Source: a virus (Duplodnaviria; Heunggongvirae; Uroviricota; Caudoviricetes). Taken from it: a DNA stretch of 25,289 nt. The position numbers and the translations under genes are program-made. Where the stretch lies: positions 1 to 25,289 of IMG/VR virus record IMGVR_UViG_2531839265_000001; one strand, written 5' to 3'. Below are positions 2,595 to 3,575 of this stretch, piece after piece (the first letter of the stretch is position 1; every line of letters begins with the position of its first letter). The notes under the pieces are model-generated. The model was not told the DNA's origin, did not search any database, and worked only from the letters and a program-made list of their open reading frames with translations.

Positions 2595-2716
2595 CGCCTC
2601 CTGATATCGAAGCCCGTCACCGCACCGGGCGCTGATCAACATTTGAGTATTCGCGGCGACAGAAAGAATTTATTTTATTGAGTAGCCACAAACACAGAAT
2701 TTCATGCTTTCCGGAT

Positions 2717-2784
2717 GCTGGCGCGCCTTATCCAGACTGACGCATCCCACTAATAAAAAAGGCACCAGTATCGCTACCAGTGCC
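2717..2784. repeat. 68-bp direct repeat, copy A (65/68 identical to copy B)
   Basis: GCTGGCGCGCCTTATCCAGACTGACGCATCCCACTAATAAAAAAGGCACCAGTATCGCTACCAGTGCC, matching 3458-3525 with three mismatches. Copy A looks like a deletion derivative of the copy B region. Confidence 0.7.
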
Positions 2785-2817
2785 TCAGTGAGTCAGCATG
2801 ACAAACTGTCGCCGGGG

Positions 2818-3090
2818 TTATCCCTTCGGATACGCCCTGAACTTCTCTCCACCAGAACTATGCAGTCCCATACTGATATGCGCGCGCCTGATGGCCTCTC
2901 GTGCATCTCCGTAGCTTTCCAGTCTGATCGGTGGACGTTCTGCCTTACGGATACACTCAGAGCGGCGCTTTGCCGCCAGTTCCCGCTCTTTATCGCTGGC
3001 CACCTGCGCCATCACCTCTGCCCACCGGGCTGCTGCCCTGCGGTACAGTCCTCTCGCCTCCAGTTCTTCAGCTTTGCTGTCTTTAATCAA
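2818..3090 (-). CDS. PerC-family small transcriptional regulator (putative)
   Basis: 90-aa track ORF MIKDSKAEELEARGLYRRAAARWAEVMAQV... resembles the N-terminal AEELE...G.WRRAA.RW motif of PerC/Pch regulators. TTG start, weak RBS. Confidence 0.45.
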   Translation of the reverse strand: MIKDSKAEELEARGLYRRAAARWAEVMAQVASDKERELAAKRRSECIRKAERPPIRLESYGDAREAIRRAHISMGLHSSGGEKFRAYPKG

Positions 3091-3392
3091 ACTTCACCAT
3101 CCATACTTAATGCTGATATAAGCCATTCATGCAACATAGAGAACGTGTATCTCCACACACGCCTGAAACCTGTTGCTGTATTACAATTAACAACAACGTC
3201 CTGTACTTTCCGCGACACGCCACACAAAAATACACAACAAGTCCGTCGTCGTTATGGCTTACCCGCCCCCTTATGGACCGGTTCTGGATGCAAAATTTAA
3301 TTTAACAGATATACAAAATGACAGGATTTCATGCTTAACGGGCGCTGTCGCGCCCTTCATTTTTCAGCAAAATATTCTGCTATTACAGGTGA

Positions 3393-3575
3393 TCAGTTCT
3401 GCAGACACTGCCGAACACCGTCGACAATTTCACAGACCTGAGAAGCCGTATCGAAAAGCTGGCGCGCCTTATCCAGGCTAACGCATCCCACCAATAAAAA
3501 AGGCACCAGTATCGCTACCAGTGCCCATTTCGCTGCCGTTCGCGGCATTCTGTGTGTCCAGTGTTTTCGCGTCAT
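3393..3575 (-). CDS. small putative lipoprotein (60 aa)
   Basis: Track ORF; signal-peptide-like MPRTAAKWALVAILVPFLLVGC with lipobox LVGC. Its signal-peptide coding part coincides with repeat copy B. Confidence 0.4.
   Translation of the reverse strand: MTRKHWTHRMPRTAAKWALVAILVPFLLVGCVSLDKARQLFDTASQVCEIVDGVRQCLQN
3458..3525. repeat. 68-bp direct repeat, copy B
   Basis: See copy A at 2717-2784. Confidence 0.7.

Follow-up and report, generated by a model that had tools for sequence, protein, structure and literature searches.

Morons and mosaic joints are found at the junction between the lysis genes and cos of lambdoid phages, with bor of phage lambda and the morons of HK97 and HK022 as examples. 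The latter were reportedly described by Hendrix and colleagues. Here, such a junction is analysed in the IMG/VR virus record IMGVR_UViG_2531839265_000001, of which positions 1 to 25,289 were used (this whole stretch of 25,289 nt is called the window). The window is a lambdoid Escherichia coli prophage with genes read on the minus strand, and it was assigned to this group because three tRNA genes, a Q antiterminator gene and an integrase gene are located further along. Between its lysis genes and the gene for the terminase small subunit Nu1, a PerC-family gene is bracketed by two near-identical 68-bp direct repeats, one of which belongs to a gene for a putative lipoprotein of 60 amino acids (aa).

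For the two genes involved, related systems have been characterised. Among the Pch regulators, only group 1 (PchA/B/C) activates LEE (locus of enterocyte effacement), PchD and PchE do not, and PchE represses csgD/curli (PMC6265319). Phage phiP27 has been listed in SpaninDB as having the shortest 'separated' two-component spanin, with an outer-membrane component (o-spanin) at 20706-20861 and a mature length of 30 residues (Kongari et al., 2018; PMC6139136). The coordinates of this phiP27 o-spanin correspond to the open reading frame (ORF) of the lipoprotein considered here. The two repeats represent the same segment of two alleles of this lysis-cassette lipoprotein gene and are probably the scar of two cassette swaps and a by-product of modular exchange.

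Anatomy of the repeats and their relatives

The repeat search returned two 68-nt segments (2717-2784 and 3458-3525, spacing 741 bp) with 65 of 68 identical positions, for which the chance expectation in 25.3 kb is ~7e-25. Positions and the three differences are exactly those of a preliminary description of this DNA, which had also located copy B in the signal peptide of the lipoprotein. Indeed, copy B comprises codons 18-39, which specify the signal peptide's hydrophobic core, the lipobox L-V-G-C with Cys31 and the mature protein's first 8 residues. Copy A had been regarded as a remnant devoid of about 110 bp. This holds as well: 114 bp (mature coding sequence and 3' flank) are deleted, so that copy A is fused straight to the downstream flank of the gene. 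In addition, it lacks codons 1-17 and a start codon and has an in-frame TGA 3 codons upstream. The 114-bp deletion is bounded by near-identical 11-mers, GCTGKCGCGCC, at 3344-3354 and 3458-3468. All three differences between copies A and B are synonymous third-position changes, and uninterrupted identity between the copies extends over 33 bp at most. A second, weaker repeat (2667-2727 and 3294-3354, 72% identity over 61 nt) represents the homologous 3' flanks of the two gene copies. The region is composed as follows:

2667-2727 (minus strand): 3' flank of the ancestral resident lipoprotein gene, copy A of the weaker repeat; continues collinear with SC407 and phiP27
2717-2784 (minus strand): repeat copy A, lipoprotein pseudogene fragment
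2749-2786 (minus strand): terminator-like element in copy A from the terminator scan, a 10-12 bp hairpin with GCGA loop, then UUUUUUAUU
2785-3247 (minus strand): PerC cassette, delimited by blastn and alignment: the PerC gene with 157 bp upstream and 33 bp downstream of it
2818-3090 (minus strand): PerC-family gene, 90 aa, TTG start
3248-3293: stretch of 46 bp of unknown origin between the copy B flank and the PerC cassette; left illegitimate joint
3294-3354 (minus strand): 3' flank of the intact gene, copy B of the weaker repeat
3393-3575 (minus strand): intact 60-aa lipoprotein gene (phrog_7528), phiP27-type predicted o-spanin, last gene of the lysis cassette
3458-3525 (minus strand): repeat copy B within the intact lipoprotein gene
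3491-3526 (minus strand): the same hairpin and U-tract in codons 17-28 of the intact gene, from terminator scan and fold

The whole arrangement is present in five independent NCBI assemblies with 99.4-99.9% identity, which rules out an assembly artefact. The flank of the intact gene contains a hairpin of its own (GGGCGC-GACA-GCGCCC, 3340-3355) and one of the 11-mers that delimit the deletion. This hairpin is located just 3' of the lipoprotein stop codon and was scored as a plus-strand terminator (TTCATTTTT tail). In its SC407 counterpart, the stem pairs only as minus-strand RNA via G-U pairs, and the fold is weak. One half of the hairpin coincides with the left boundary of the 114-bp deletion in copy A.

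The gene between the repeats had been assigned to the PerC family, and a profile search confirmed this: It matches PF06069 with E 9.6e-31 (106.4 bits, cutoff 22.6), residues 1-88 aligning with profile positions 1-88 of 90, and phrog_994 with E 3.6e-33. Its membership in the PerC family is solid.

Relatives of the locus fall into two forms. In the single-copy form, found in many E. coli prophages including those of SC407 and of the enterotoxigenic E. coli (ETEC) strain H10407, window positions 2300-2727 directly adjoin 3321-4000; the window has 627 bp more. Alignments revealed that copy A keeps the downstream flank of the single intact gene of SC407 and phiP27, while copy B has a different flank. 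Therefore, copy A is what remains of the resident gene, still in the ancestral position. The Rz-type form was found with the closest non-identical PerC proteins (P0003 and P0004, 82-84% identity), whose prophages have either a lambda-type holin/lysozyme cassette or the same holin_8/holin_3_7/M15 cassette as the window. In all of these, Rz/Rz1 is followed by PerC, a 5'-truncated lipoprotein gene, the A-type flank, a 98-aa gene and Nu1. The PerC cassette is common to the window and the Rz-type prophages at 82-84% DNA identity.

The joint at which the PerC downstream stretch (CTGACTCAC.GAG) passes into lipoprotein codon 18 (GCACTGGTAGCG) is base-for-base the same in the window and in the Rz-type loci L012-L019. 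In L012-L019, Rz is located directly upstream of PerC, and there is no intact lipoprotein gene, hence no second repeat. Their fragments keep the undeleted 3' part; thus, the 114-bp deletion is specific to the window lineage, and the joint predates the window arrangement. In L018, the fragment has lost 1 nt and its lipobox is mutated, as is typical of decaying pseudogenes. Copy A shares 65 of 68 positions with copy B and likewise 65 with the SC407 copy, 64 with that of an Stx2k phage and 63 with that of phiP27. Judged by these alignments, the high identity of copies A and B is conservation of a gene segment across phages. Directly observed are the anatomy, the joint common to both types, the existence of single-copy relatives and the absence of any excess similarity between A and B.

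The window type is rarer (8 contigs) than the Rz type, which is indexed in 150 blocks. The exact PerC protein was found in 8 E. coli contigs, from which 5 loci were retrieved. Neither type occurs in 5,426 complete E. coli genomes or in the IMG/VR scans, where searches for the PerC-fragment joint and for the deletion joint yielded 0 matches each. The 627-bp segment is missing in SC407 and the ETEC prophages, and PerC occurs in 0 of 87 other loci with an intact lipoprotein gene. Among E. coli prophages, a PerC-family gene is in circulation as a cassette whose right-hand joint is fixed.

Within the 68-bp segment, the coding strand contains the hairpin GGGCACUGGUA-GCGA-UACUGGUGCCU followed by UUUUUAUU; in the terminator scan, both copies of this motif were flagged. 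The copy A hairpin begins 32 nt downstream of the PerC stop codon and folds with -22.9 kcal/mol (z -4.5); in the window, L012 and L018, folds range from -20 to -29.5 kcal/mol with z-scores of -3.5 to -6.7. The L018 hairpin is unbroken, in fact stronger, whereas the lipobox downstream of it is mutated. Among 58 distinct coding sequences, Yersinia included, four-fold degenerate sites are nearly invariant in the hairpin codons 17-25 and free elsewhere (Mann-Whitney p ~0.002, a rough figure, as the sequences are related). Across 38 distinct sequences, the loop is always GNRA (GCGA, GCAA or GUGA), and 99% of cells are paired. The overlapping +1 frame of phiP27 L32 was considered as a cause of the synonymous conservation and rejected, as this frame is not open in the window.

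Origin of the arrangement

The two swaps, the most economical history, probably proceeded as follows. In an SC407/phiP27-like ancestor, a block composed of Rz/Rz1 and PerC would have taken the place of lipoprotein codons 1-17. One crossover would have occurred in or upstream of the 37-aa ORF that precedes both cassette types, the other one, illegitimate, inside the signal-peptide codons. The former was probably homologous because this upstream ORF is common to both types and 82% identical between them. The product would be the arrangement Rz, PerC, fragment found in L012-L019. Subsequently, in the window lineage, an intact lipoprotein cassette from a diverged phage would have replaced Rz/Rz1 and thereby created the direct repeat around PerC. 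We infer this order of the two swaps. Eventually, copy A would have lost 114 bp by slippage between the short direct repeats.

In the preliminary description, the repeats had been taken to indicate that PerC was acquired by recombination between them or that the segment was duplicated in place, copy A decaying later. This proposal draws on the position of PerC between two direct repeats with 96% identity, and excision of the intervening segment would indeed yield the sequence of the single-copy relatives. It does not fit the other data and is unlikely. The joint between PerC and the fragment exists in L012-L019 without copy B, and copy A is no nearer to copy B than to the orthologues in other phages. 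A single recent duplication should have left uniform divergence; here, the flanks are 72% and the repeats 96% identical. As the differences between A and B are all synonymous, their divergence would date from a time when each copy was still coding, a functional allele in a phage of its own. Furthermore, recombination between the repeats would delete PerC rather than insert it. That direct repeats flank an inserted gene could also point to a mobile element which entered the lipoprotein gene and generated a long target-site duplication. This is highly improbable: The segment (2785-3457) has no transposase, integrase or terminal inverted repeats, 68-bp repeats together with a 61-bp diverged stretch and a deletion do not resemble a target-site duplication, and the right-hand joint occurs in L012-L019 without the left-hand repeat.

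A third explanation concerns the maintenance of copy A. Its hairpin and U-tract might have been retained by selection as terminator of a PerC moron, and the same element might act as a Q-sensitive terminator or attenuator in the intact gene. The Q-driven late operon would read through the hairpin, which in the lysogen could end PerC transcripts. The motif is present in both copies with strong folds, its distance from the PerC stop codon is short, L018 has preserved it despite the mutated lipobox, four-fold sites vary little, the GNRA loop and the pairing are kept, and a Q antiterminator gene is present upstream in the same prophage. By contrast, the L012 fragment has one broken stem pair, and the low variation, whose p-value ignores relatedness, might reflect recombinational homogenisation or constraint on the protein. 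We consider selection on the hairpin a tentative possibility. The suppressed synonymous variation, as the sole evidence, speaks for a nucleotide-level constraint, and a terminator or attenuator would be a reasonable reading of it. A selected hairpin would explain why exactly this 68-bp piece survived next to PerC, and a lysogen terminator would give PerC the classical moron layout. The more far-reaching combination, a selected Q-sensitive terminator or attenuator that closes the lysis cassette and was co-opted for PerC and, separately, a lipoprotein that replaces Rz/Rz1 as a partner-less outer-membrane disruptor, appears rather improbable.

The following observations weigh against the proposed two swaps or against a role of the hairpin in PerC expression. 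The 46-bp stretch had no match in complete E. coli genomes, viral contigs or metagenome contigs, and no donor combining an intact gene, the B-type flank and this stretch was found there. Left of the PerC cassette, local alignment of 3248-3330 with Rz 3' ends scored no better than shuffled sequence, i.e. no Rz remnant was detected. It is thus possible that an undeleted ancestor of the window type gave rise to the Rz-type forms. The 38 hairpin sequences contain no double compensatory changes, and hairpin conservation could originate from protein constraint or from homogenisation by frequent recombination. A scan of the minus strand at 3091-3300 found no sigma-70-like promoter upstream of PerC. 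Hence, PerC may be transcribed solely as a member of the late operon antiterminated by Q; if so, the hairpin would not be its terminator. Two candidates, H71 and H72, for the donor of the B-type flank and the 46-bp stretch proved to have the ordinary single-copy form.

The lipoprotein gene in the lysis cassette

The intact lipoprotein matches phrog_7528, a family without assigned function, over its full length (E 1.6e-38). It has a basic n-region, MTRKHWTHRMPRTAAK, a hydrophobic core, WALVAILVPFLLVG, and the lipobox L-V-G-C31, and is a predicted substrate of Lgt and LspA. The mature part comprises 30 residues with the invariant Cys48 and Cys57. Across 18 homologues, L28, G30 and C31 are invariant and V29 is nearly so. 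The +2 residue of the mature lipoprotein is Val, Ala or Thr, never Asp. The N-terminus follows the pattern M-x-R-x-H-W-T-H-R-x-P: M1, R3, H5, T7, H8, R9 and P11 are invariant in the 18-member alignment, W6 is nearly invariant and M10 is not conserved. Since M1 is invariant and M10 varies, the 60-aa reading is correct and a 51-aa gene call is not. In the phiP27 phage record, this ORF is unannotated. The annotated phiP27 L32 (51 aa, MHGDF...) covers the same DNA as the gene for the conserved 60-62-aa lipoprotein, but in another reading frame (L002, 2867-3055 and 2943-3098, minus strand).

The phrog_7528 family was found in Escherichia, Salmonella, Citrobacter, Cronobacter and Yersinia; the scan of species-representative genomes contributed only 3 lipoprotein loci. 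The gene is always the last one of the lysis cassette. In E. coli, Salmonella, Yersinia and metagenomic loci, it is located directly after an M15 or GH108 endolysin gene, in several loci overlapping the endolysin stop codon by 4 nt. As the gene for a predicted outer-membrane lipoprotein in the lysis cassette next to the endolysin, it has the position expected of an o-spanin gene. In none of the loci retrieved in this analysis does an intact lipoprotein gene co-occur with Rz: The intact gene without Rz is found in 97 loci, and Rz together with only the fragment in 7. By its position and its mutual exclusivity with Rz, the lipoprotein is predicted to work like a spanin component.

Candidates for a partner were considered. 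No ORF embeds or overlaps the lipoprotein gene as expected for a cognate inner-membrane spanin (i-spanin). A unimolecular spanin (u-spanin) of the T1 gp11 type does not fit either, as the 30 mature residues are polar/amphipathic, with no hydrophobic stretch and no C-terminal transmembrane domain. The 37-aa ORF upstream of the lipoprotein gene has a hydrophobic segment at its C-terminal end and would comprise 57 aa if the GTG at 3750 were used as start codon. It is homologous to the 37-aa ORF before Rz in L012 (L012 2264-2377), preceding the lipoprotein gene in some prophages and Rz in others. Of the 97 loci with an intact lipoprotein gene, 52 have no such ORF, and elsewhere it is found in front of Rz; hence, the ORF does not qualify as a dedicated partner.

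The phiP27 i-spanin of SpaninDB is a TTG-started 64-aa ORF (L002 3186-3380, minus strand) antisense to a 90-aa ORF (3124-3396, plus strand) that is annotated as a protein in E. coli ESC818 (L024 2840-3109). As it is antisense to this plausible gene, the i-spanin, and with it the two-component spanin call for phiP27, is doubtful.

Cargo slot, neighbouring genes and comparison with known systems

PerC is located in the prophage cargo slot between lysis genes and Nu1. The gene order on the minus strand is integrase, Q, tRNAs, two holins, M15 endolysin, 37-aa ORF, 60-aa lipoprotein, PerC and Nu1. The neighbouring genes are:

1169-1678 (minus strand): Nu1 terminase small subunit, from ORF and Pfam
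2297-2594 (minus strand): 98-aa phrog_1935-family gene, a pseudogene, next after the lipoprotein flank
3577-3690 (minus strand): small membrane-protein ORF of 37 aa, phrog_4493, between the endolysin and lipoprotein genes
3823-4206 (minus strand): M15 endolysin, from Pfam and PHROG endolysin
4203-4439 and 4467-4931 (minus strand): holins, which define the lysis cassette together with the M15 endolysin
9200-9895: Q antiterminator gene, upstream in the same prophage
23576-24940: integrase

The 98-aa gene is intact in SC407 and L018. Alignment with these revealed a TGG to TAG change at 2490-2492 and a 2-nt deletion in the window, and the PHROG match stops at profile position 33 of 116, which suggests decay of the prophage region around 2297-2594. 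Upstream of the holins, there is a tRNA-Met/Thr/Gly cluster, which related Stx-type prophages also have. A weak match to a DDE transposase, below threshold (21.7 bits, cutoff 23) and located between Q and the lysis genes, is possibly the remnant of an insertion sequence; the coordinates for this possible remnant and the tRNA region are 6977-7591 (plus strand) and 5610-5919 (minus strand). The Rfam scan yielded nothing relevant, its sole match being a sub-threshold Streptococcus sRNA at 3775-3827. In Yersinia kristensenii (L110, 4488-5183), the same cargo slot after holin, GH108 endolysin and lipoprotein harbours a gene with an Enterotoxin_a/Scabin-like ADP-ribosyltransferase domain, preceded by KilA-N and pRha genes.

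As to the role of PerC, predictions from the sequence are weak. PerC shares 59% identity with P0069 (labelled PchABC family) and 62% with P0033 and P0040; the range for PchABC- or PerC-labelled sequences is 59-62%. With PchE, it shares 80% identity over the 54 residues of PchE. In NCBIfam, no model scored above cutoff, and the single match was ANR_neg_reg (15 bits, cutoff 32). PerC is plausible as putative lysogenic-conversion cargo. It may be moron-like cargo that encodes a small PerC/Pch-type regulator and whose non-Q-modified transcripts are ended by the copy A hairpin. A 5-codon upstream ORF (ATG GAT GGT GAA GTT TGA, MDGEV*; 3087-3104, minus strand) overlaps the TTG start codon of PerC at TTGA. 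The aligned PerC cassettes, including those of L012, L016 and L018, do not vary in this stretch, which hints at translational coupling or control.

E. coli PerC genes with ~76% DNA identity were rejected as direct donor: They belong to satellite-like elements without lipoprotein fragment which carry primase/DUF927, SSB, PerC and HK97 capsid genes. In three E. coli loci (L009-L011; tcmA_3, 042 and O177:H21), PerC-family genes with 67-70% protein identity are found between SSB and HK97-type capsid, protease and portal genes, beside primase or DUF927 genes. These loci look like capsid-encoding satellites similar to phage-inducible chromosomal islands (PICI-like), so PerC-family regulators would be satellite cargo as well as prophage cargo.

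In comparison with PerC of enteropathogenic E. coli (EPEC), encoded on pEAF, and PchA-E from prophages of enterohaemorrhagic E. coli (EHEC), the PerC protein of the window has a full-length Pfam match, a length of ~90 aa, a prophage location and a conserved N-terminal half in common. It differs in being only 59-62% identical to PchABC- or PerC/BfpW-labelled sequences. The lipoprotein can be compared with two spanin systems. The phiP27 o-spanin is its orthologue, likewise encoded by the last lysis gene and with an outer-membrane lipoprotein signal, whereas the window lacks a counterpart of the SpaninDB i-spanin, a conserved inner-membrane partner of the lipoprotein was not found, and Yersinia and Salmonella relatives have the lipoprotein gene straight after the endolysin gene. 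With lambda Rz/Rz1, it shares the slot after endolysin and 37-aa ORF, where the two are mutually exclusive; this suggests an equivalent role. However, there is no sequence similarity, the lipoprotein gene is free-standing without an Rz-like partner, and the mature part is predicted to be helical and not proline-rich. The phiP27-type lipoprotein would be a positional, mutually exclusive alternative to Rz/Rz1 without recognisable inner-membrane partner and is a candidate for the means by which the outer membrane is breached in some 'minimal spanin' phages. This lipoprotein and the conserved intragenic hairpin are the only leads of note from the locus.

Like the lambdoid morons, PerC is an extra, non-essential gene of variable presence, located after the last lysis gene and before Nu1; its borders are abrupt novel joints, and a hairpin and a U-tract follow. 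In contrast to them, no promoter was detected for PerC, two successive exchanges probably left a direct repeat, and the terminator-like element was not imported but is a piece of the overwritten lysis gene. The locus is a clean example of how modular exchange at the lysis/packaging junction can leave pseudogene scars that resemble repeats around a cargo gene, and it warns that a repeat alone is insufficient to infer repeat-mediated capture. Measured against these known systems, it is a recombination scar of ordinary phage mosaicism beside a new member of a known regulator family.

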